A stretch of DNA of 64,000 bases from Tidjanibacter sp. (GTDB taxonomy: Bacteria; Bacteroidota; Bacteroidia; Bacteroidales; Rikenellaceae). The translations under genes were made by a program, and so were the position numbers. Under the pieces are notes generated by a model. That model had not been told where the DNA came from and did not search any database. It saw nothing but the letters and a program-made list of their open reading frames with translations. Shown one piece after another: positions 3,794 to 29,735 of this stretch. Location: positions 4,870-68,869 of the forward strand of contig JAZOCT010000001.1 of the NCBI GenBank assembly GCA_045596685.1, given 5' to 3'. How positions within the stretch are numbered: position 1 is the first letter of the stretch; each line of letters starts with the position of its first letter.

Positions 3794-4398
3794 AACTCTT
3801 CGGCGGGTTTTAGTTGTTCGTGTTTAGTCTTAACAATCTTCTGGGCGCTCTTCGAGAGGTTCTCCTCATCTTCGAGGAAGCGTTTAATCTTCCTTATTGC
3901 GTCCTCATAGCCCGGAATCTGCACTTTTTCGTACAGATTGACCTTCTGTGTAGTCTTTTTGCGTGCGTGGTCGAGGAGTTCGGTGCGGCGCATAAATACC
4001 GCAAACTCAATCCCCAAGCGGGCAATCTCCTTCAAAACCTCCACCCCATCGGCATACCACGCGGGCGAGGAGAAGAGGTCGTAGGGACGCTGCTCAAAGA
4101 CCACCTCCGAAAGGGCAGGAATCTTCACACCGGCAATCTTATTGACCCCCAGCACGACATCCTTCACCACAAGAAGGTCACTCTCGAACTCACCCCAAAG
4201 TGCCGACATATAGTCGTACTTTGCCATCAACTCATCCATCTGCCTCTGGTAGCCCTCTGCCTTATCTTTGGCAGCCGACACCTCAACCCTCAAAGCCGAC
4301 TCCTTACTCTTGATGGTGGGGAGTGCTTTTTGGCGCATTTTGAGTTGTTTGCCGAGTTCGCCGAGCGAAGTCTTATTATATTGAAACTTTATTGCCAT
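3790..4398 (-). CDS. ntpD: V-type ATP synthase subunit D
   Basis: 202 aa with a helical, charged composition. Its position between B and I matches the operon order. Confidence 0.75.
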   Translation of the reverse strand: MAIKFQYNKTSLGELGKQLKMRQKALPTIKSKESALRVEVSAAKDKAEGYQRQMDELMAKYDYMSALWGEFESDLLVVKDVVLGVNKIAGVKIPALSEVVFEQRPYDLFSSPAWYADGVEVLKEIARLGIEFAVFMRRTELLDHARKKTTQKVNLYEKVQIPGYEDAIRKIKRFLEDEENLSKSAQKIVKTKHEQLKPAEEL

Positions 4399-4537
4399 CT
4401 AAATCCTTCAATTAGAATGGTTATCCTTTCTTTGTCTAATTCATTGAATTTTTGAACTATTTTTTTCCTTTGGCAAGGGAGCATAGCGGGCCTATGCAAC
4501 CGCACAAAAGGGGAAAAAGAGCCAAAAAGAGGATGAA

Positions 4538-5854
4538 TTATTTCCAATACTTCTCTACCAATTCGGCCTTAATTGTAACCTCCGACTTCTTGAAGTACTT
4601 GGCAAACAGAGTCCAAGCGGTGTCGAGCATCTCGGTGATGTCGATATTCACGTCAATGGAGAGCAACTTATCCGAATACTCCTTCGCAAACGCCAGAGCG
4701 CGCTCATCGTAGTCCGAAAGGTCAAAACCATTCTCCAACTTGGTCTTGGCACCCGCAGCATCCGAATACAAACGCACAGCGGCATTCATAACCTGGGGAT
4801 GGTCCTCGCGGGTCTTCTTGCCAATCACGAGTTGTTTCAGACGCGAAAGCGAGCGGAAGGGATCTACGATAACCTTGCCCGTATCGGTGTCGTTACGGAG
4901 GAAGAGCTGACCCTCGGTAATGTAACCCGTATTATCGGGAATTGCGTGGGTAATATCGCCACCCGAAAGGGTCGTAACGGCAATAATGGTAATCGAACCA
5001 CCCGAAGGCAACTGTACGGCTTTCTCGTAAATCTTCGCCAAGTCCGAGTAGAGCGAACCGGGCATCGAATCCTTCGAGGGAATCTGGTCCATACGGTTCG
5101 ACACGATAGCGAGTGCATCGGCGTAGAGGGTCATATCGGTGAGCAGCACCAGAACCTTCTCGCCCTTATCGGCAGCGAAATACTCTGCTGCTGTAAGTGC
5201 CATATCGGGCACCAACAGACGCTCCACAGGAGGATTCTCCGTTGTGTTCACAAAGCAAACAATCCTATCCAACACGCCCGCATTCTCAAACAAGTTCTTG
5301 AAATAGAGGAAGTCGTCGTTGGTCATACCCATACCGCCCAAGATAATCTTGTCGGCCTTTGCCCTCAAAGCCACATTGGCCATCACCTGGTTGTAGGGCT
5401 GGTCGGGGTCGGCAAAGAAAGGAATCTTCTGACCCGACACGATGGTGTTGTTAAGGTCGATACCTGCAATACCCGTAGCAATCAACTCCGAAGGCTGACG
5501 ACGACGGAAGGGATTTACGGTAGGACCGCCAATCTCCCTCTCCTCGCCCTCAACGGGGGCTCCTCCTTCGAGGGGCTCGCCATAGGCGTTGAAGAAACGA
5601 CCTGCCAGGCCATCGCCCACCTTCAACGTGGGGGGCACACCGTGAAACAGTACCTCGGCATCGGTAGAGATACCCTCGGTACCCTCAAACACCTGCAAGG
5701 TAACCTCGTCACCCATAATCTTAACCACCTGTGCAAGGTGACCACCAACGGTTGCGAGTTCGTCGTTACCCACACCCGTAGCGTGAAGTGTCACGGTTGC
5801 TTTGGTGATGTTGTCAATTTTGGTGTATATCTTCTGAAATGCTTTTGTAGTCAT
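4538..5854 (-). CDS. ntpB: V-type ATP synthase subunit B
   Basis: 438 aa with an A/B-type ATPase fold sequence (SRMDQIPSKDSMPGSLYSDLAKIYE, ITIIAVTTLSGGDITH). Confidence 0.9.
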   Translation of the reverse strand: MTTKAFQKIYTKIDNITKATVTLHATGVGNDELATVGGHLAQVVKIMGDEVTLQVFEGTEGISTDAEVLFHGVPPTLKVGDGLAGRFFNAYGEPLEGGAPVEGEEREIGGPTVNPFRRRQPSELIATGIAGIDLNNTIVSGQKIPFFADPDQPYNQVMANVALRAKADKIILGGMGMTNDDFLYFKNLFENAGVLDRIVCFVNTTENPPVERLLVPDMALTAAEYFAADKGEKVLVLLTDMTLYADALAIVSNRMDQIPSKDSMPGSLYSDLAKIYEKAVQLPSGGSITIIAVTTLSGGDITHAIPDNTGYITEGQLFLRNDTDTGKVIVDPFRSLSRLKQLVIGKKTREDHPQVMNAAVRLYSDAAGAKTKLENGFDLSDYDERALAFAKEYSDKLLSIDVNIDITEMLDTAWTLFAKYFKKSEVTIKAELVEKYWK

Positions 5855-5872
5855 ATCTCTTCTCCTCCAAGT

Positions 5873-7621
5873 TTATTTAGTGGTAGCAAATGCCCTGATT
5901 TCAGCCTCACCTTTTGCAAACGCCTCGCTCTTCCACTCGGTGTAGTTGAGTTGTTTGAAGAGGTTGATGAGGGTCTTGAAGAATGCCGAGCACTCCTCAA
6001 AGTCGGCAAAGTTGTACTCCTTGCGGCACATCTCCATCACAAAGTCGAACATATATTTTTGGCGGTCAATGGGGCAGTTGGCATCAATGTCATCGAATGC
6101 ATCCTGTTGCAAGATAACAAAGTCCACGAGTTCGCTCTTCCAGAACATCTCGTGATACTCTACGGGCACACCGTCGTCACCGAGAATGTTGATTTGCTCG
6201 GCTGCCTCTTTACCCCTACGCACGAGGGTCTTACCCTCCATTACGTTCTTAACCCAACCATCTTCGATGTGGTCATCGAGGTACTCCACGATTTCGGGAT
6301 ATTCGAGATATTTGGAGTAACTATCCAGCGGGTCGATAGCGGGATAGCGTTTCGAGTCGGCACGCTGCTGCGAGAGTGCATAGAAACACCTTGCAGCCTT
6401 CTTTGTGGACTCCGTAACGGGCTCCTTCAAGTTACCACCCGCAGGCGATACGGTACCGAGGAAAGTTACCGAACCGGTCACACCATTGCGCAAGTGTACC
6501 AAGCCCGCCCTCGCGTAGAACGACGAGATGATGGCCGAGAGGTCCATAGGGAATGCGTCCTGACCGGGAAGTTCCTCCAAACGGTTACTCATCTCACGAA
6601 GAGCCTGTGCCCAACGCGAAGTAGAGTCGGCCAACAGAAGCACCTTCAAACCCATAGCACGGTAGTACTCCGCGATGGTCATACCCGTGTAAACCGAAGC
6701 CTCACGAGCCGCAACGGGCATATTCGAGGTATTACAGATGATGGTTGTACGCTCCATAAGTTTGTGACCGGTACGGGGGTCGTCCAAGTGGGGGAACTCG
6801 GCGAAAATCTCCACCACCTCATTTGCACGCTCACCGCAGGCTACCATAATAATAAGGTCTGCCTCGGCCTGTTTCGAAATGGCGTGCTGCAACACAGTCT
6901 TACCTGCACCGAAAGGACCGGGAATGAAACCCGTACCGCCATCGGCAATGGGGTTGAAGGTATCAATAGCCCTCACACCTGTCTCCATAATACGGCTGGG
7001 ACGGGGTTTGGCGCTATACGCCTTGATGGCCTTCTTAACGGGCCAGCGCTGTACCATAGTCACCTCGTGGTCCTCACCCTTCTCGTCCGTAAGTACAGCC
7101 ACAACGGTATTCACATTGTACTGTCCCTCCTCTTTGAGCGACTTGATGGTGTAGGTCTGCTCCATAACAAAGGGAACCATAATTTTGTGGGCTACCCACA
7201 ACTCCTGAACCTCACCGAGCCAATCGCCTGCGGTAACCTTATCGCCCACCTTTGCGAGGGGCTTATAGTCCCAGAGTTTCTCGTAGTCGATGGGGTCGGT
7301 TTTGGTACCCCTCTCGATGAAGAGGCTCTCCATCCTTTCGAGGTCGTTTTGCAGACCGTCGTAGTTGCGCGAGATGATACCGGGAGCAAGTGTTGCTTCG
7401 AGCATATGGCCCTCAAACTCCACCTCGGTACCGATTCGCAAACCGCGTGTCGAGTCGAAGACCTGAACGTAGGCATCCTTACCCGTCACCTTAATCACCT
7501 CCGCCATCAACTTCACGCCACCAATGGTGATGTAGCAGATTTCGTTCTGCGACACAGCGCCCTCGGTGCGTACAATCACGATATTGGAGATAATACCTTG
7601 TACTTTACCAGTAGTTTTCAT
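5873..7621 (-). CDS. ntpA: V-type ATP synthase catalytic subunit A
   Basis: 582 aa. Walker A is GPFGAGKTV. The sequence also contains the non-homologous insert typical of A subunits. Confidence 0.9.
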   Translation of the reverse strand: MKTTGKVQGIISNIVIVRTEGAVSQNEICYITIGGVKLMAEVIKVTGKDAYVQVFDSTRGLRIGTEVEFEGHMLEATLAPGIISRNYDGLQNDLERMESLFIERGTKTDPIDYEKLWDYKPLAKVGDKVTAGDWLGEVQELWVAHKIMVPFVMEQTYTIKSLKEEGQYNVNTVVAVLTDEKGEDHEVTMVQRWPVKKAIKAYSAKPRPSRIMETGVRAIDTFNPIADGGTGFIPGPFGAGKTVLQHAISKQAEADLIIMVACGERANEVVEIFAEFPHLDDPRTGHKLMERTTIICNTSNMPVAAREASVYTGMTIAEYYRAMGLKVLLLADSTSRWAQALREMSNRLEELPGQDAFPMDLSAIISSFYARAGLVHLRNGVTGSVTFLGTVSPAGGNLKEPVTESTKKAARCFYALSQQRADSKRYPAIDPLDSYSKYLEYPEIVEYLDDHIEDGWVKNVMEGKTLVRRGKEAAEQINILGDDGVPVEYHEMFWKSELVDFVILQQDAFDDIDANCPIDRQKYMFDFVMEMCRKEYNFADFEECSAFFKTLINLFKQLNYTEWKSEAFAKGEAEIRAFATTK

Positions 7622-7676
7622 TTAATATTTCTATTTTTTGTTTTTTTGAATTTTCGTCACTTTTTCAGCCACCCCT

Positions 7677-8546
7677 CTACTCCGCATATCTTCTTTCGGC
7701 CTGACGGATGTGCTCCGTAGCACCGAGCGAGGATACCAACCTGCGGAACATCTCTTTGCCTCTCTCGGCATCGAGCCTTGCCCAGCGGTGGACAAGCGAA
7801 AGGCGTACAATGTAGCCCAAAAGGAAGTCTATATTGAAGTAATCGAAGGTCGAAAGTTCCTCCGAAATACCCCAACGAATCATATCTATGCGGTGCTCCT
7901 TATCGAGAAGGTTCTCATTCTCGGCAAGTGCACCAATGAGGGTATCGACATAGCCAACCTCACCTTTCAGTCCGAAGTCGGCAGCCGACGAGCGCGATAG
8001 TTGCTGTACGACCTCACCGTCGCCCACCATCCATTCGGCAATGGTGAGTCCTTTGGCGCGGGCTGCGAGCGCTGCGGTGATGTTGCGCAGGTTGCGGTCA
8101 GCCTCACTCCACTCCCTCAAAAAGCGACACCCGCTGGTGGCGCAGTAGCGGTAGTAGGCAGCAAAGAGTTCCGTTGCAAATGCACGCGAGGGGTCCACCC
8201 TCCTCAAACGCTCATCGTCGGCATCCACCTCGCCACCAGCCATATCGGTGTAGAGTTCCACAACCTCCGCCAACTCACGGGGAAGTTCGCTCGGGCGCTC
8301 CAACTGCTCGGCAATCTCCTCGCGCGAGAAGTTACCCAGCGTGGAGTATCCCTCCCTGCCACTCTTGATATTCACCATATTGCACACATCGTGGAAGAGC
8401 ATCCAACCGCGCAATGCCCGGGCATCCTCCTTCGAGAGTTCGTCGGCAATCTCGTCAATCACCTCTCTCGCGTCGAACCCCTTGACATCGCCATCGAGCG
8501 AATACTCCCTCAATCCGGCAACAAGGCAGTAGTAATTTTTAGCCAT
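7677..8546 (-). CDS. DUF2764-type protein (subunit C-like component of the Bacteroidetes V-ATPase operon)
   Basis: 289 aa. It lies between ntpE and ntpA, as in Bacteroidetes V-ATPase operons. The family assignment is from memory. Confidence 0.55.
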   Translation of the reverse strand: MAKNYYCLVAGLREYSLDGDVKGFDAREVIDEIADELSKEDARALRGWMLFHDVCNMVNIKSGREGYSTLGNFSREEIAEQLERPSELPRELAEVVELYTDMAGGEVDADDERLRRVDPSRAFATELFAAYYRYCATSGCRFLREWSEADRNLRNITAALAARAKGLTIAEWMVGDGEVVQQLSRSSAADFGLKGEVGYVDTLIGALAENENLLDKEHRIDMIRWGISEELSTFDYFNIDFLLGYIVRLSLVHRWARLDAERGKEMFRRLVSSLGATEHIRQAERRYAE

Positions 8547-16602: not shown

Positions 16603-16764
16603 GATGCAAAGGTAGTGATTTTTTCGAGAATGCTATCAATATGTTTAACAATTAGTTAGGTGTTGGAGCGAAAAAAAGTTGCAAAAAAAGCACATTTTTT
16701 TGTTGTGAAAATTTGCAGAAACGAATTTTTGCGCTACCTTTGCATCGCAAATCAGAAATGCAAC

Positions 16765-16839
16765 GGGAGTTTAGCTCAGCTGGTTTAGAGCATCTGCCTT
16801 ACAAGCAGAGGGTCGGCGGTTCGAATCCGTCAACTCCCA
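16765..16839 (+). tRNA. tRNA-Val (anticodon TAC)
   Basis: Cloverleaf folded by hand. Acceptor gggagtt/aactccc, anticodon arm tctgc-CTTACAA-gcaga, T-loop ggttcgaatcc. Confidence 0.9.
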
Positions 16840-16845
16840 CAAGAG

Positions 16846-23039: not shown

Positions 23040-24443
23040 ATGGCAAGAAATCGACACCCCCGATTGGAGGGACTCAAAATAACCTCACTGGCCGCCGAAG
23101 GCAACGCGATGGGCAAGTGGAACGACGTGGTGGTATTCGTACCGATGACCGTTCCGGGCGACGTTGTGAATGTGCAGATTCGCACCAAACGTCGTCGCTA
23201 TATGGAGGGCTACGTCACCGAGTACATCGAGCGCTCACCCCTGCGCGTGGAGCCTTTCTGCGCCCACTTTGGCGTGTGTGGAGGTTGCAAATGGCAGAAC
23301 ATCCCATACGGTGAGCAGATTGCCTTCAAGCAGCAACAGGTCTTCGACCAACTCACCCGCATCGGACACCTTACGATTCCCGAAATAAGGCCCATTCTCG
23401 GTTCGCGCAAGACCGACCACTACCGCAACAAACTCGAATTCACCTTCGCACCCAAGCGTTGGAAAACCTACGAGGAGGTGGCACGAGGTGAGGAGATTGC
23501 CGACACACCCGCTTTGGGTTTCCACATCCCCTCGATGTTCGACAAGATTCTCGACATCGACTATTGTCACCTGCAACCCTCACCCTCCAACGAGATTCGC
23601 AATGAGGCAAGGCGCTTTTGTATCGAGCACAATTACCCCTTCTATGACATCCGTCAGCACTCGGGGCTTATGCGTAACATAGTCATCCGTACTGCCTCGA
23701 CGGGCGAAGTGATGGTCATCGTGGTCTTTGCTGTGGAGGACAAGGAGCGCATCGAAGAGTTTATGGAGCACCTGAAAGTAACCTTCCCCGAGATTACCTC
23801 GCTGGTCTATATGATAAACGACAAACTCAACGATTCGCTCGGCGATAGGGAGCCCATCCTCTACTCGGGTCGTGACCACATCTTCGAGGAGATGGAGGGC
23901 CTGCGCTTCAAGATTGGCCCCAAATCGTTCTACCAGACCAACTCCGAGCAGGCATACGAACTCTACAAGGTGGCACGCGAGTTTGCCGACCTTACGGGCG
24001 ACGAGGTGGTCTATGACCTCTATACGGGTACGGGTACGATTGCCAACTTTGTGGCATCGAAGGCCAAGAGTGTAGTCGGTGTGGAGTACGTCGAGGAGGC
24101 TATTGAGGATGCGAAGGTCAATTCTGCAATCAATGGCATCACCAACACCACTTTCTATGCGGGCGATATGAAAGATGTTCTCAATGATGAGTTTGTGGAG
24201 CAAAACGGCCATCCCGATGTAGTGATACTCGACCCCCCGAGGGCGGGCGTACACGAGGATGTGATTGCCACAATCCTTCGTGCCGCACCCGACAGAATTG
24301 TCTATGTTAGTTGCAACCCCGCAACACAAGCACGCGACTTGGCAATGATGAACGACCACTACGAGATTGTAGCCGTACAACCCGTAGATATGTTCCCCCA
24401 CACCCACCACGTTGAAAATGTAGTAAAACTTATAAAGCGATGA
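23040..24443 (+). CDS. rlmD: 23S rRNA (uracil-C5)-methyltransferase RlmD/RumA family
   Basis: 467 aa. It has a TRAM-like N-terminus, the Fe-S cysteine cluster CAHFGVCGGCKWQ, and a SAM methyltransferase C-terminal domain. Confidence 0.85.
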   Translation: MARNRHPRLEGLKITSLAAEGNAMGKWNDVVVFVPMTVPGDVVNVQIRTKRRRYMEGYVTEYIERSPLRVEPFCAHFGVCGGCKWQNIPYGEQIAFKQQQVFDQLTRIGHLTIPEIRPILGSRKTDHYRNKLEFTFAPKRWKTYEEVARGEEIADTPALGFHIPSMFDKILDIDYCHLQPSPSNEIRNEARRFCIEHNYPFYDIRQHSGLMRNIVIRTASTGEVMVIVVFAVEDKERIEEFMEHLKVTFPEITSLVYMINDKLNDSLGDREPILYSGRDHIFEEMEGLRFKIGPKSFYQTNSEQAYELYKVAREFADLTGDEVVYDLYTGTGTIANFVASKAKSVVGVEYVEEAIEDAKVNSAINGITNTTFYAGDMKDVLNDEFVEQNGHPDVVILDPPRAGVHEDVIATILRAAPDRIVYVSCNPATQARDLAMMNDHYEIVAVQPVDMFPHTHHVENVVKLIKR

Positions 24444-25039
24444 AACGAATTATCACAACCCTCGCCACCATTATGAGCGCACTCTCGCTCGTGGCACAAA
24501 CCACCGTTGTCGAATCACCACAAACCGACGTTCTCTATCGTCTGCCGATGGAGGGCGGAGTGAAGATTACAGCACGCACCCTCACCCCTCGTAACCTCGG
24601 CATTGCTATGCACCAGAACCTCTTGGACTTCTGCGCGTGGGAACTCCTCACCACAGAGGCCACCGATATTGTAGCACCCCGTGAGGGTGTGGTTGAGAAG
24701 GTGACCGATGGCTCACTCCTGCTTCTCCACCCCGATGGGCTCTACACCCTTTTGGATGCAATGGGTAGCGTCACTGTCAAAGAGGGCGACAAGGTGGCCA
24801 AAGGTGACAAGGTGGGCACAGCACAGCCTCTGGATGGGGGCAAATGGAGAGTGTGGGTGGTTGCCTACTACCTGAAAAACAACCCCTCCTATGGTCAGGT
24901 GGCACAGAGTGGAAACTACGAGCACCTCTACCAATACCTCAACCCCGTGTTCTCCACGAGGGGTAAATGCAAAGTGCAACTCTCCGACGGTGGCTCCTAC
25001 ACCGTCAAGGCTCGCACTTGGTGCTGGCCCTGGGAATAG
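24440..25039 (+). CDS. secreted LytM/M23-like domain protein (possibly degenerate)
   Basis: 199 aa with a signal peptide. LLLLHPDGLYTLLDAMGSVTVKEGDKVAKGDKVGT resembles the M23 core. It overlaps the rlmD stop by 4 nt. Confidence 0.4.
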   Translation: MKRIITTLATIMSALSLVAQTTVVESPQTDVLYRLPMEGGVKITARTLTPRNLGIAMHQNLLDFCAWELLTTEATDIVAPREGVVEKVTDGSLLLLHPDGLYTLLDAMGSVTVKEGDKVAKGDKVGTAQPLDGGKWRVWVVAYYLKNNPSYGQVAQSGNYEHLYQYLNPVFSTRGKCKVQLSDGGSYTVKARTWCWPWE

Positions 25040-26303: not shown

Positions 26304-26317
26304 AAAACGAAAGTGAT

Positions 26318-26348
26318 TTTGATTATTGAGCAACAGATGTTAATTTTG
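26318..26348 (+). promoter_or_regulatory. candidate Bacteroidetes sigma-A promoter for the islet ATPase operon
   Basis: TTTG (26318-26321), N19, then TAATTTTG (26341-26348). This matches the -33 TTTG / -7 TAnnTTTG consensus. The ATG is 22 nt downstream. Confidence 0.45.
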
Positions 26349-26369
26349 TGGAAATTATAGCAATTCAGT

Positions 26370-27737
26370 ATGATACATTTTAAGTTAAATAATTTTAGAG
26401 CTATCGGCTCTGCCGAAATTGATATTAAAGGTATTACGGTTGTATCTGGCGAGAATGGTTGTGGTAAGAGTACTATATCTCGCTTGTTGTACAACACATT
26501 TGACATTGCTAATAACTATGAGAAACTCATTAAAGCAAATCTAAACTCCAAGTTGGCTGATTTGTATAGTCTGATTAACTCAATTATGAGAGATATGACG
26601 TTTGGAAGATATGGACAGCTTTCGGAAGAGGAAAACGAATGGATTCACTATTCTGGTCGTAGGTATTATTCCATACAAGAGGATGAGGAAATAGAAGATT
26701 ACTTGGAAAGGATTATCGCCACAATTGATAAAATCGAGAAAGCATTTATTGGTGCGATGTCAATAAAAAGTGAAAATATGAGAATATATCCGCTCTCGAT
26801 TATTCAACAAACAATAGTTAGACTTGGTTCTACATTGGGAGTATCTATTGATGTAGAATGTTTGAACAGAATAGATGATGTCATTGCGGCTTTCAATGAG
26901 CTCAAAGAAGAATGTGAACGTGTAGTAAGACAAACAGCTAGAGCAATTGATTTTAGACCAATAAATTTCTTGAAAGATGACCTATCTTCTAAGTTTTCTC
27001 AGCGAATTGAAGATATTTTTTTGCATATTAGCGAATATAGTACCTCTATCACCAACTGGGATTACAATACATTGGAACAACCAATAGAGGTGCGTAAATG
27101 CGTCTATATTGATACCCCTATGGCTGTTGGTAGGAAAAATAAAACCAATAACCCATATTGGATTAAATTGAATGATTTATTGGAAAGTAAAGATGTGAAT
27201 AATGCTCTTTGGGATGTAACAGCACAAATCAATCAAACGCTAAATAATGATGTATTAAAGGGAAGTACATATTTTGATGATAATAAAATAAATTCATCTT
27301 TTAAGTACAAACGTATTGATGGCAAAGTGTTTGATTTAGAAGAGTGTGCAACGGGTATCAAGTCATTCGGTATTCTGCAAATGTTGCTTGAAAATGGTCA
27401 TCTTAATAAGAATTCATTGTTGATTATTGATGAACCAGAAGCACATCTTCATCCACAATGGATTGTTGAGTATGCTCGATTAATAGTTTTGCTTAATAAA
27501 CTTTTAGGGGTTAAGGTGTTTATTGCAAGCCACAATCCTGATATGGTAAGCGCAATAAGATATATTTCTGAAAAAGAAGGTATGCTTGATCAAGTGAGTT
27601 TCTATTTGGCAGAGAAAAATGAGGGTTCCTATACCTACGACTATAAATACTTGGAATCCGATATTGAGCCAATTTTTGCGTCTTTCAATATTGCACTTGA
27701 CCGTATTAACCAATATGGAACTATTGAACAAGAATAG
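26370..27737 (+). CDS. ABC/SMC-type (AAA_21/AAA_15-like) ATPase
   Basis: 455 aa. Walker A is SGENGCGKST. There is a helical insertion of about 300 aa. Walker B/D-loop is LLIIDEPEAHLHPQW and the H-loop is IASHNPDMV. The codon usage is AT-rich and unlike the flanking genes. Confidence 0.75.
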   Translation: MIHFKLNNFRAIGSAEIDIKGITVVSGENGCGKSTISRLLYNTFDIANNYEKLIKANLNSKLADLYSLINSIMRDMTFGRYGQLSEEENEWIHYSGRRYYSIQEDEEIEDYLERIIATIDKIEKAFIGAMSIKSENMRIYPLSIIQQTIVRLGSTLGVSIDVECLNRIDDVIAAFNELKEECERVVRQTARAIDFRPINFLKDDLSSKFSQRIEDIFLHISEYSTSITNWDYNTLEQPIEVRKCVYIDTPMAVGRKNKTNNPYWIKLNDLLESKDVNNALWDVTAQINQTLNNDVLKGSTYFDDNKINSSFKYKRIDGKVFDLEECATGIKSFGILQMLLENGHLNKNSLLIIDEPEAHLHPQWIVEYARLIVLLNKLLGVKVFIASHNPDMVSAIRYISEKEGMLDQVSFYLAEKNEGSYTYDYKYLESDIEPIFASFNIALDRINQYGTIEQE

Positions 27738-27740
27738 AGT

Positions 27741-28229
27741 ATGGCTTATAAATACTGTGAAAAAACTACTAAAAAACATCCGAAATATAAGGATGTTTTT
27801 GCCAAACCTCTATCGGTTGCTATAAAGGATGAGGGTGGACCAATTATTGGTATCCATAGCATTGTTGTTGACCTAGATGCTATGGAGAAGGATAATGCTT
27901 TAAGGCAGAATAGAAACCAAATATCTACAATGGATATATTCTTTGGAATATCACAAGAGGTTACACATAAAAGCCCTCAAATATGTCTAGTAGATTTTAA
28001 ATATAGGGTAAAGGGGAATAGTGGATTTGACATAAAAGATTGTGAAAAAAAGATAAAAGACTCTATCGTAATACTTGGAAGAGATGTGATTATTCATCCA
28101 AACTATTATTTTGTTTTTTCAAAGAACAATCAGGTAAAGCGAAGTATTTTATCTAGAAAGAATCTGTCAAACCCGAACTCACCAATGAAATTCATTAATA
28201 CGAACACTTTTACAGAATTGTTTTGGTAA
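27741..28229 (+). CDS. hypothetical 162-aa protein, partner of the ATPase
   Basis: It starts 4 nt after the ATPase stop, and its AT-rich composition matches the ATPase gene. I recognise no family. D65 and D85-F-K87 could form a PD-(D/E)xK-like motif, but this is speculative. Confidence 0.55.
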   Translation: MAYKYCEKTTKKHPKYKDVFAKPLSVAIKDEGGPIIGIHSIVVDLDAMEKDNALRQNRNQISTMDIFFGISQEVTHKSPQICLVDFKYRVKGNSGFDIKDCEKKIKDSIVILGRDVIIHPNYYFVFSKNNQVKRSILSRKNLSNPNSPMKFINTNTFTELFW

Positions 28230-28230
28230 T

Positions 28231-28269
28231 ATAAATATGGCTCGGAATAAATTTCCGAGCCATATTTAT
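28231..28269. terminator. bidirectional hairpin terminator
   Basis: Perfect 17-bp stem ataaatatggctcggaa / ttccgagccatatttat with a 5-nt loop, between convergent genes. Confidence 0.7.
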
Positions 28270-28275
28270 TACAAT

Positions 28276-28971
28276 TTATAAGCCAACTGCGATAAAAGGA
28301 AGCAATGTTGACACAACTACCACAACACCAGTGCTAATATATATAGTTGCTTTTTCTGTATCATATTCGACTAAACTTTGTATATTAAACTCACTTCCGA
28401 CAAAAGTCAGAGTGTATTCTATCTTCTTACCATCAACTTCAATAGGTAGTAAGAGTCTCGTTTCTGTGTAATACGGGTTGGTTTTGTATAACTGCAAGAT
28501 GTTTTCTGCTGCATTTATGTTGTCAAATTTGTTGTAATTAGGTAAAGCGATAGACCAATTACCATCTATGAGTGTTAAACCATCTACAGGTGCAATGGTA
28601 TCTTCTAATCTTGCACCTGCTGGGATTACGGAAGGTACTTGTGCCTTTTCCTTGTCTATTAGTTTTATTCCCATATGGATTATTCGGTGGGAAGAACCTT
28701 CATTATCAATAAATGCTGCATCATCCCATAAGATACGGATAGAAGAGGAGTGATTATTTATTATTGTCAAATCAATTTGGCTCCCCGAGACTGAAGCGGA
28801 TGGGCAGAGTGTGACATATTCATCTGAATATGTGTTATTGGAATGCACACCAAGCGAATTATGATTAGCGTTTGCTTCTTTGAGTTTGTACTTGCCATCA
28901 ATAAAATAGGTGGTTGTGTAACAGCTTGACAAGGTCGTTATTGCCAAAATAATTAGTAGTACTTTTTTCAT
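28276..28971 (-). CDS. hypothetical lipoprotein with a C-terminal TM anchor
   Basis: 231 aa counted from MKKVLLIILAITTLSSC (lipobox). C-terminal hydrophobic helix TGVVVVVSTLLPFIAVGL. AT-rich. Confidence 0.6.
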   Translation of the reverse strand: MKKVLLIILAITTLSSCYTTTYFIDGKYKLKEANANHNSLGVHSNNTYSDEYVTLCPSASVSGSQIDLTIINNHSSSIRILWDDAAFIDNEGSSHRIIHMGIKLIDKEKAQVPSVIPAGARLEDTIAPVDGLTLIDGNWSIALPNYNKFDNINAAENILQLYKTNPYYTETRLLLPIEVDGKKIEYTLTFVGSEFNIQSLVEYDTEKATIYISTGVVVVVSTLLPFIAVGL

Positions 28972-29300
28972 GGCTTTGTTTGTGTTAGTTAAACAATAGT
29001 ATTCTGCCTTTCTGCTATTGTGAAACCAACTACACAAAAAAGCGCAGGAGGACTTATGTAATTCAGAGGTACTGGCATACCTATACTACAACATAAGCAC
29101 CACCCACGCTTTGGCGTAGGCGTTAAGTGCCCATTGTTCTTGTAGTAATAAGAAAAGTGCCAGTTTTCTGAATTCGAACAATAGCAAACGCTACAAAATA
29201 TGTTTGTCAAGATAAATATAATCCTCTCAACACTGCAAATATAGGTATAAATAGCGATTTATATCTATTTATTTTGTATTTTTGTGCATAAAAATTAGTA

Positions 29301-29332
29301 GGCGTGCAACGAAATGCCCCTGTTTTGCATCT
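29301..29332 (+). promoter_or_regulatory. 32-nt conserved motif (candidate ECF-type promoter or operator), copy A
   Basis: GGCGTGCAACGAAATGCCCCTGTTTTGCATCT. It is 27/32 identical to 53798-53829 and lies 37 nt upstream of the lipoprotein ATG. Confidence 0.5.
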
Positions 29333-29369
29333 ATATGTTATAGAGCACAAACTTAACACCCTAACTACT

Positions 29370-29735
29370 ATGAAACGCGGAATCAAAAACATCCTTTTGA
29401 GCCTTGCAGGTTTCTCGGCTGCCCCCATTCTCACCGCCTGCTATGGTATGCCCGACAACTACTACGACGAGCCGGAGATGTTCAACGACATAAAAGGCTT
29501 CGTAGTCGATACGGAGTTGAACCCCATCAAAGATATTGAGGTCTATGTAGATGGACAGACTTGTCGCACCAATGAGAATGGCAGTTTCCACCTCGATGGC
29601 GAATTTTGGGGCTACACCACCCTCACCGCTACCGATGTGGATGGCGAGGCAAACGGTGGCGAATTCGGCACTGTGGATGTGCCCGTATCGGAGGAAAACC
29701 ACGCAATCATAAGTGTCGTAATGAGTAGAAAATAG
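29370..29735 (+). CDS. small lipoprotein with a carboxypeptidase-regulatory-like beta-sandwich domain (radical-SAM-associated)
   Basis: 121 aa with lipobox ILTAC. IKGFVVDTELNPIKDIEVYVDGQTCRTNENGSFHLDG fits the CarboxypepD_reg pattern. Confidence 0.65.
   Translation: MKRGIKNILLSLAGFSAAPILTACYGMPDNYYDEPEMFNDIKGFVVDTELNPIKDIEVYVDGQTCRTNENGSFHLDGEFWGYTTLTATDVDGEANGGEFGTVDVPVSEENHAIISVVMSRK

Follow-up and report, generated by a model that had tools for sequence, protein, structure and literature searches.

A candidate two-gene defence module of Tidjanibacter pairing a defence-type ABC ATPase with a small protein of an unannotated, possibly nuclease-like family

The 64,000-nt stretch of DNA analysed here, referred to below as the window (positions 4,870 to 68,869 of contig JAZOCT010000001.1, Tidjanibacter sp., assembly GCA_045596685.1), carries on its forward strand two adjacent genes encoding an ATP-binding cassette (ABC)-type ATPase of 455 amino acids (aa) and a protein of 162 aa, called here the partner, which together form a candidate defence module. 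The TAG stop codon of the ATPase gene ends at 27737 and the ATG of the partner gene begins at 27741, and the two coupled open reading frames (ORFs) thus have the coordinates and the stop/start spacing claimed in a preliminary description of this DNA. Both are under purifying selection, with ratios of nonsynonymous to synonymous substitution rates (dN/dS) of 0.13-0.14 for the partner and 0.02-0.08 for the ends of the ATPase, and can therefore be considered real genes. Their base composition is foreign: the guanine-plus-cytosine content (GC) is 0.32-0.34 and that of third codon positions (GC3) 0.27-0.30, against a GC of 0.53-0.56 and a GC3 of 0.65-0.67 in the flanking genes, and the region of the pair is the only part of the window in which GC falls below 0.42. 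The AT-rich codon usage of the pair, as first described, was thus borne out, but not its being unlike that of every neighbouring gene, since the convergent ORF downstream, 28276..29037 (-), has a GC of 0.36; the AT-rich islet accordingly extends past the pair and takes in this ORF as well (Table 1). No att-like direct repeats flanking the islet were found, nor any Rfam RNA in or around the pair.

The pair is preceded by a promoter of the Bacteroidetes type, with the TTTG-N19 spacing noted earlier and with 22 nt between the end of its -7 element, TAATTTTG, and the ATG of the ATPase gene. TTTG/TAnnTTTG is the Bacteroides promoter consensus, and the pattern TTTG-N18-20-TAnnTTTG is over-represented in the window, where seven copies were counted against 0.54 expected; none of 100 shuffles reached seven. 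Among the seven sites is one at 16712-16742 (+), located just upstream of tRNA-Val (16765-16840). Between the partner gene and the convergent gene downstream lies the perfect 17-bp hairpin of the preliminary description, its arms fully complementary, which is probably a bidirectional terminator; it escaped a generic scan for terminators, as it is AT-rich and lacks a T tract.

Table 1. Features of the ATPase-partner locus (window coordinates)
Feature	Position	Strand	Details
Bacteroidetes-type promoter	26318..26348	+	-33 TTTG at 26318-26321, N19, -7 TAATTTTG at 26341-26348
AT-rich islet	26304..29303	.	GC 0.32-0.37, flanks 0.52-0.56; contains the pair and the convergent lipoprotein-like ORF
ABC-type ATPase gene, AAA_15/AAA_21 class	26370..27737	+	455 aa; ORF with Pfam/PADLOC matches
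Walker A (P-loop)	26448..26474	+	residues 27-35 GENGCGKST; G27, E28, N29, G30, G32, K33 and T35 invariant in 14 members
Hypervariable insert, proposed sensor cassette	26526..26954	+	ATPase residues 53-195
Putative signature-motif equivalent	27348..27362	+	residues 327-331 ATGIK; A327, T328, G329, I330 and K331 invariant
Walker B and D-loop	27417..27461	+	residues 350-364 LLIIDEPEAHLHPQW
H-loop region	27525..27548	+	residues 386-393 ASHNPDMV; S387, H388, P390, D391 and V393 invariant
Conserved C-terminal extension past the H-loop	27570..27734	+	ATPase residues 401-455, about 55 residues
Partner gene, proposed nuclease effector	27741..28229	+	162 aa; unannotated family with a PD-(D/E)xK-like signature
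D65 codon	27933..27935	+	D in 92/92; N-terminal edge of strand 66-72; proposed metal-binding aspartate
D85-F86-K87 codons, (D/E)xK motif	27993..28001	+	end of strand 80-86
K104-S108 codons	28050..28064	+	helix 98-112; K104 in 92/92; S or T at position 108 in 89/92
Inverted repeat, 17 bp	28231..28269	.	arms 28231-28247 and 28253-28269, 100% complementary, 5-nt loop

The ATPase belongs to the AAA_21/AAA_15 class, an OLD-ABC-like clade typical of defence ATPases, as initially proposed, both Pfam models being matched above their gathering scores: AAA_15 with 63.6 bits (cutoff 32.1, E = 3e-17, residues 4-393) and AAA_21 with 56.3 bits (cutoff 27, E = 7e-15). Its top PADLOC matches are HEC-02A (9e-29), NsnB of Menshen (9e-23), PD-T4-4_A (2e-19) and AriA of PARIS (5e-19), followed by PtuA, GajA and Old, so that all of its best matches are ABC ATPases of defence systems. 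Scores against the NCBIfam transporter, housekeeping and repair models are far under the cutoffs, and the protein groups with the defence-type ABC ATPases rather than with transporters. In PHROGs it matches phrog_14430, of unknown function, over its full length (2.5e-34), while the solved structures of OLD, PtuA, AriA and Rad50 align to it only at the nucleotide-binding motifs (E 6e-5 or weaker).

Conservation within the ATPase was read from a family alignment of 14 sequences. The motifs listed in the preliminary description, SGENGCGKST (26-35), LLIIDEPEAHLHPQW and ASHNPDMV, are all present and their key residues are invariant in this alignment. In the Walker B and D-loop segment I352, E355, P356, E357, L360, H361, P362, Q363 and W364 are invariant and D354 is kept in at least 90% of the members. 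The location of the ATGIK segment before Walker B suggests that it is the equivalent of the ABC signature motif. The protein ends 62 residues after the H-loop, and most of this tail is a conserved extension with Y423, Y425, L428, I432, I435, F436, S438, F439, N440, I446, Y449 and G450 invariant. By analogy with the binding of NsnC by the DUF3696 domain of NsnB (PMC12065111), this extension may be the surface on which the partner docks. Between the conserved halves lies an insert of about 270 residues (residues ~50-320), hypervariable at 53-195 and followed by a milder variable zone reaching approximately residue 322.

In contrast to the ATPase, the partner falls outside all named families, as had been suspected. 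No model of Pfam 2025, NCBIfam 20.0, PADLOC 2.0 or PHROGs v4 matches the window protein; HNH, Toprim/DUF4435, DUF4276/RloB and NERD matches are all absent from it, NERD and PADLOC having been checked at E<=1, and a sequence-profile search of PDB found nothing relevant. A word-indexed homologue search gave just four and then eight relatives, and the family was uncovered only by an exhaustive profile search, which yielded 143 representative clusters (at 50% identity), nearly all of 155-185 aa and named "hypothetical protein" throughout in NCBI and UniProt. Among 92 aligned members, over which conservation was counted, there was no convincing match to Pfam or PADLOC and none to NERD at E<=0.01; one member weakly matches the DUF4263 nuclease model of Shedu (0.002).

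The D65...D85-x-K87 core, singled out from the window protein alone as compatible with a minimal PD-(D/E)xK nuclease, proved to be the signature of the whole family: position 65 is always D, position 85 is E in 71/92 and D in 21/92, and at position 87 all but one of the 92 members have K (76) or R (15). D46 is kept in 91 and E49 in 81 of the 92 members, and position 108 is S in 83. Conservation extends to the N-terminus as well, where Y5 (88/92), T10 (87/92) and H13 (85/92) stand out and C6 and C20 are often present. In a subgroup of about 260 aa (P0154, P0206, P0237, P0257 and similar) the D, ExK and K core is retained and followed by a helical C-terminal extension of about 100 residues that contains no known domain.

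An AlphaFold model of the partner based on the 92-sequence alignment has a predicted local distance difference test score (pLDDT) of 94 and a predicted template modelling score (pTM) of 0.88; the deep alignment was needed, as with only five close sequences the pLDDT was 33. The modelled elements follow the order strand 41-44, helix 45-55, strand 66-72, strand 80-86, helix 98-112, strand 118-126, helix 128-142, strand 149-153 and helix 154-161. D65 starts the first strand of a β-hairpin and D85-x-K87 ends the second, D46 and E49 lie on the preceding helix, and after the hairpin come helix 98-112 and strand 118-126. The elements from helix 45-55 to strand 118-126 would fit the order alpha-beta-beta-beta-alpha-beta, with strand 41-44 as a possible first strand; in the model this arrangement resembles the canonical layout of PD-(D/E)xK nucleases. 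The fold matches obtained with the model are weak and not significant. Most of them belong to the PD-(D/E)xK superfamily, including MUS81-EME1, Zip2-Spo16, MspJI, YaeQ, the Shedu nuclease, Cap4, Can2, VRR-NUC, DUF2726 and RPB5-type domains. A Toprim reading built on E31-G32 and D44-x-D46 was rejected, these residues being 13 positions apart and on the wrong structural elements, with no profile match. Judging by the model, the partner is a divergent minimal protein of the restriction-endonuclease fold, an assignment in which we have about two-thirds confidence.

The two genes are strictly paired. A scan with the ATPase alignment, taking one genome per species, gave 221 hits in 185,579 genomes, a lower bound limited by the search pattern, and in the best 80 of the 221 genomes the partner gene was found directly 3' of the ATPase gene on the same strand in every case (80/80), usually overlapping it or separated from it by a few bases; the same adjacency was seen in Alistipes shahii and Elizabethkingia. 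Five frameshifted or truncated copies of the pair were noted, among them L036, L052, L075 and L103. The hosts belong mainly to Bacteroidota, the closest being Tidjanibacter, and include Alistipes, Bacteroides, Prevotella, Parabacteroides, Flavobacterium, Capnocytophaga, Chitinophaga and Elizabethkingia, as well as a few WOR-3, Cyanobacteria, Melainabacteria and Acidobacteria. At 37 loci the four genes closest to the pair represent 168 Pfam families, none of them common to more than five neighbours; since the flanking genes are otherwise unrelated across loci, the ATPase and the partner move as a unit. The expected co-occurrence of the two genes was thus found in unrelated contexts, but defence genes lay nearby at only a minority of the other loci.

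In contigs of A. shahii (L019-L022, positions 4100-7915) the pair directly follows genes of the AAA_24 and DUF3871 families; what lies further upstream varies, and a sulfatase gene is conserved on the downstream side. Such a location has the appearance of the border of an integrated mobile element. The cluster of the A. shahii partner was found on more than 570 metagenome contigs. A metagenome scan with the neighbouring RluD gave only distant relatives (<=75% identity) in which synteny was not conserved, and no empty-site evidence was obtained. It is also worth mentioning two more distant arrangements. In the faecal phage MT835532 (L193:5304-5873) and in the Bacillus cereus plasmid NZ_CP128105 (L194:5383-6051), homologues of the ATPase with 29% and 24% identity, respectively, each precede a small ORF whose motifs come in the partner's order, D...ExK...KxxxS; that of MT835532 aligns in register with the partner profile, weakly (hhalign P 0.013). 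A wider superfamily reaching beyond Bacteroidota may exist, on suggestive sequence likeness only.

Comparison of the same-genus relatives revealed the mosaic character of the pair. In all of them it lies between a pseudouridine synthase gene and a radical-SAM gene, and these housekeeping neighbours share 83-94% amino-acid identity with those of the window. Within the ATPase the identity is 92-100% for residues 1-50 and 86-97% for residues 341-455, and it ranges from 33 to 84% for residues 51-340; for the partner the range is 36-99%. The hypervariable part of the insert, residues 53-195, is only 19% identical to that of the same-genus member P0013, against 85-88% at the ends (85% for residues 323-455), and matches it no better than it does the homologues from across the phylum (15-25%). 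Family-wide, the mean identity is 23% for the insert and 60-79% for the ends, and the nonsynonymous rate (dN) of the insert is 0.08-0.71, compared with 0.03-0.07 at the ends.

Insert and partner alleles assort independently. In relative L001 ATPase residues 51-340 are 33% and the partner 76% identical to those of the window, in L011 the respective values are 73% and 36%, and in L014 they are 84% and 99%. In L014 the partner gene has 98% nucleotide identity and rluD 84%. The locus L195:272-2140 is a natural chimera, with 99% nucleotide identity in the partner gene, 98% identity in ATPase residues 401-455 and 25% in residues 53-195, and since it combines a near-identical partner and C-terminal extension with such a divergent insert, a recombination breakpoint must lie inside the ATPase gene. 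The mosaic identities as a whole indicate breakpoints both within the ATPase gene and where the two genes meet, as well as the exchange of alleles between species.

Among the systems already described, the closest to the pair appears to be HEC-02 (Hma-embedded candidate 02, Payne et al.), composed of an ABC ATPase and a NERD protein of the PD-(D/E)xK type, both of which are needed for the protection of E. coli from phages (10.1101/2024.01.29.577857). Like the pair, HEC-02 consists of two genes, an ABC ATPase gene followed by that of a small protein, which belongs to the PD-(D/E)xK superfamily in HEC-02 and putatively does so in the pair, and HEC-02A is the best PADLOC match of the window ATPase. 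The partner of HEC-02, however, is a NERD protein, whereas neither the window partner nor its 92 relatives match Pfam NERD or any PADLOC model. The HEC-02A model, of about 338 positions, aligns to the 455-aa ATPase in two partial stretches, the better one joining residues 282-409 to profile positions 176-298, and the insert and the conserved C-terminal extension are the window ATPase's own. The PADLOC model PDLC04146, labelled HEC-02B, matches the ATPase (5.5e-18) and not the partner; in the HEC paper HEC-02B is the NERD protein, and the PADLOC label may therefore be inconsistent with that paper.

PARIS likewise combines an AAA_15-type ATPase of similar size with a smaller nuclease, and the AriA model covers residues 4-393 of the window ATPase. 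AriA structures, though, match only its motif regions (E ~5e-4), and AriB is a Toprim/DUF4435 protein, a family for which the window partner gives no match and with which the topology of its model is incompatible. In Septu and retron I-A an oligomer of the ABC ATPase PtuA controls a bound small nuclease, and PtuA models match the ATPase with E values of 1e-13 to 3e-16; PtuB, however, is an HNH nuclease, unlike the partner, and with the NCBIfam PtuA model, whose cutoff is 500 bits, the ATPase reaches 29.8. Menshen (NsnABC) shares with the pair an AAA_15 ABC ATPase, NsnB, and shows strong polymorphism and shuffling in its effector region, the C-terminal domain of its ATPase being predicted to dock the effector (PMC12065111). 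It is, however, a system of three genes that requires the ParB/DUF262 protein NsnA, whereas the gene upstream of the window ATPase encodes a pseudouridine synthase (PseudoU_synth_2) and a DUF262 gene is absent; moreover, NsnC joins an inactive PIN domain to a toxin domain, while the partner is a single domain. GajA of Gabija, OLD, AbiL (AbiLi/AbiLii) and PD-T4-4 fall with the window ATPase into one broad clade of ABC ATPases that phage defence employs together with nuclease domains (PADLOC 1e-11 to 2e-19). In OLD and Gabija a C-terminal Toprim domain is fused to the ATPase, which is not the case in the window ATPase, as it stops soon after the H-loop; from AbiL and PD-T4-4 the pair differs in that its partner matches neither AbiLii/RloB/DUF4276 nor PD-T4-4_B in Pfam or PADLOC.

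No description of the pair was found in the literature searched, the comparison having been made outside the DefenseFinder models and the ABC ATPase classification of Krishnan et al. 2020. The best reading of these likenesses is that the pair joins an ATPase of a known class to an effector family not described so far and probably stands closest to HEC-02. As the design of an ABC ATPase joined to a PD-(D/E)xK protein has already been validated in HEC-02, it is the effector family that would be new, not the architecture.

How such a module might work can be proposed from its relatives. According to PMC12065111 and PMC11464382, in PARIS, Septu and the models of Menshen a dimer or oligomer of the ABC ATPase binds the nuclease and keeps it quiet until a phage cue shifts the nucleotide state; in PARIS the nuclease is freed once its ATPase has sensed the trigger from the phage, and in Gabija and OLD the nuclease is fused to the ATPase instead. 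In the Tidjanibacter pair the ATPase would, through its conserved N- and C-terminal halves, form a head-to-head ABC dimer or a higher oligomer holding the partner inactive, perhaps by means of the C-terminal extension. The hypervariable insert (residues 53-195, in a looser sense extending to about 322) would sense a trigger derived from the invader, and the binding of the trigger would alter the binding or hydrolysis of ATP. The changed state of the ATPase would then free or activate the partner, a putative minimal nuclease of the PD-(D/E)xK type with an active site formed by D65, D85 and K87 and aided by D46/E49 and K104, which would cleave nucleic acid of the invader or of the host.

The preliminary description considered the pair a candidate defence or abortive-infection system, and the computational checks that it called for came out in favour of this reading; defence itself is what we infer from them. 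That the pair is an immune module against phages or other mobile elements, built on the plan of an ABC ATPase plus a nuclease, is a proposition to which we give an even chance. A number of observations weigh against it. The Foldseek searches with the partner model returned no significant match, the best hit in PDB having an E value of 0.23 and template modelling (TM) scores of 0.2-0.38, the best in BFVD an E value of 7e-3, and the TM score reaching at most 0.44 in all searches. The R found at position 87 in 15/92 members is unusual for a catalytic lysine. The neighbours at the window locus are all housekeeping genes (RumA, M23, cytidine deaminase, RluD and radical SAM), with no defence genes among them. 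PADLOC models were matched by only about 11 of the 146 nearest neighbours at 37 loci (E<=1e-10); these comprise other AAA_21 ATPases, a type IIG restriction enzyme, HamB, MzaA and PDC candidates, and since several of them are generic ATPases or sigma-54 activators, the support from defence islands is weak and any enrichment of defence genes near the pair at most modest. A search of viral contigs and of phage and plasmid records detected no close relatives of the pair. Finally, dN/dS is below 1 throughout both genes, so that the divergence of the insert speaks for the swapping of cassettes, or alleles, rather than for demonstrated positive selection.

Some of these points would be accommodated if the module served in defence or another genetic conflict with a partner that is not a nuclease, acting instead as an adaptor, a sensor or an effector of other chemistry, its D, E and K residues serving binding or a different reaction. 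Besides the lack of a significant structural match to any nuclease and the R at position 87, this alternative draws on the absence of a PD-(D/E)xK sequence-profile match among the 92 members, on the conserved Y5, T10 and H13 (often with C6 and C20) outside the canonical nuclease core, and on the unannotated helical extension of the ~260-aa subgroup. We nevertheless consider it unlikely, as D65, [E/D]85-x-[K/R]87, the acidic helix with D46/E49 and the downstream helix match the canonical core of restriction endonucleases in their order, their spacing and their placement on secondary-structure elements, the weak fold matches are strongly enriched for the PD-(D/E)xK superfamily in both libraries, and the characterised two-gene relatives all use a nuclease partner.

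The pair could also be a selfish addiction cassette resembling toxin-antitoxin systems, retained since its loss is harmful and conferring no protection from phages, and a small, tightly coupled operon of two genes with foreign composition, distributed patchily across phyla and set at the window locus among housekeeping rather than defence genes, would suit such an element, as would the frameshifted or truncated copies. The maintenance of one chromosomal site through speciation within the genus, with purifying selection on both genes, and the lack of close relatives in the plasmid records searched speak against it, and the swapped hypervariable insert of the ATPase better fits the recognition of changing targets; we regard this explanation as distinctly improbable, bearing in mind that it and defence are not mutually exclusive, as many abortive-infection systems are toxin-antitoxin-like. 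Slightly less probable still is a role in DNA repair or recombination, in which the pair would act on chromosomal DNA ends as a machine of the SbcCD/RecF/RecN type: the SbcCD/Mre11-Rad50 plan likewise joins an ABC ATPase to a nuclease, the N-terminus of the ATPase weakly matches SMC_N, RecF, RecN and Rad50, and the window neighbours are housekeeping genes, but these matches are confined to the P-loop region (residues 3-45) and lie far under the family cutoffs, the distribution is sporadic (the above lower bound of 221 hits), the base composition is foreign, and within the genus the insert differs by up to ~80% and the partner by ~64%, against 6-17% for the housekeeping neighbours.

Returning to the immune module, a more far-reaching version of it can be put forward, though only tentatively. 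The pair would then represent an unnamed anti-phage family, spread across Bacteroidota and common in human-gut Alistipes, whose effector is a new minimal branch of the restriction-endonuclease fold and whose specificity is reprogrammed by the independent exchange of insert and effector between species, with no change in the ATPase heads or in the chromosomal site, in other words a "plug-in sensor, plug-in effector" system.

Some features of the surrounding genes deserve mention. The convergent ORF 28276-29037 (-), which encodes a lipoprotein-like protein of 253 aa, belongs to no family; residues 23-68 weakly match the Cor superinfection-exclusion lipoprotein in PHROGs (E 0.009), and its identity in same-genus relatives is 53-84%. 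It was considered as a third component of the module and ruled out, being missing from distant loci and from the same-genus relative L016. Two other genes near the pair, the M23-peptidase-like 24440-25039 (+) and the CarboxypepD_reg-like 29304-29735 (+), are 49-62% identical to their same-genus orthologues, compared with 83-94% for the other neighbours, and are thus fast-evolving; they probably encode envelope proteins.

The catalogues of defence systems have been built mostly from Proteobacteria and Firmicutes, with gut Bacteroidota poorly covered, and the partner is unnamed in current libraries, yet the pair is present in at least 221 species genomes. As far as can be judged from sequence, it is a good, testable candidate for a defence system of familiar design with unusually clear natural chimeras. 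Should it prove to be a true defence system, the partner would constitute a new effector family for the ABC-ATPase class. The chimeras, in which the same heads and partner occur with different inserts, offer a ready-made probe of how such ATPases sense infection, and if the insert is the sensor, exchanging inserts should exchange phage specificity. A role of the pair in defence would also be relevant to phage therapy and to the ecology of the crAss-like phages of the gut.

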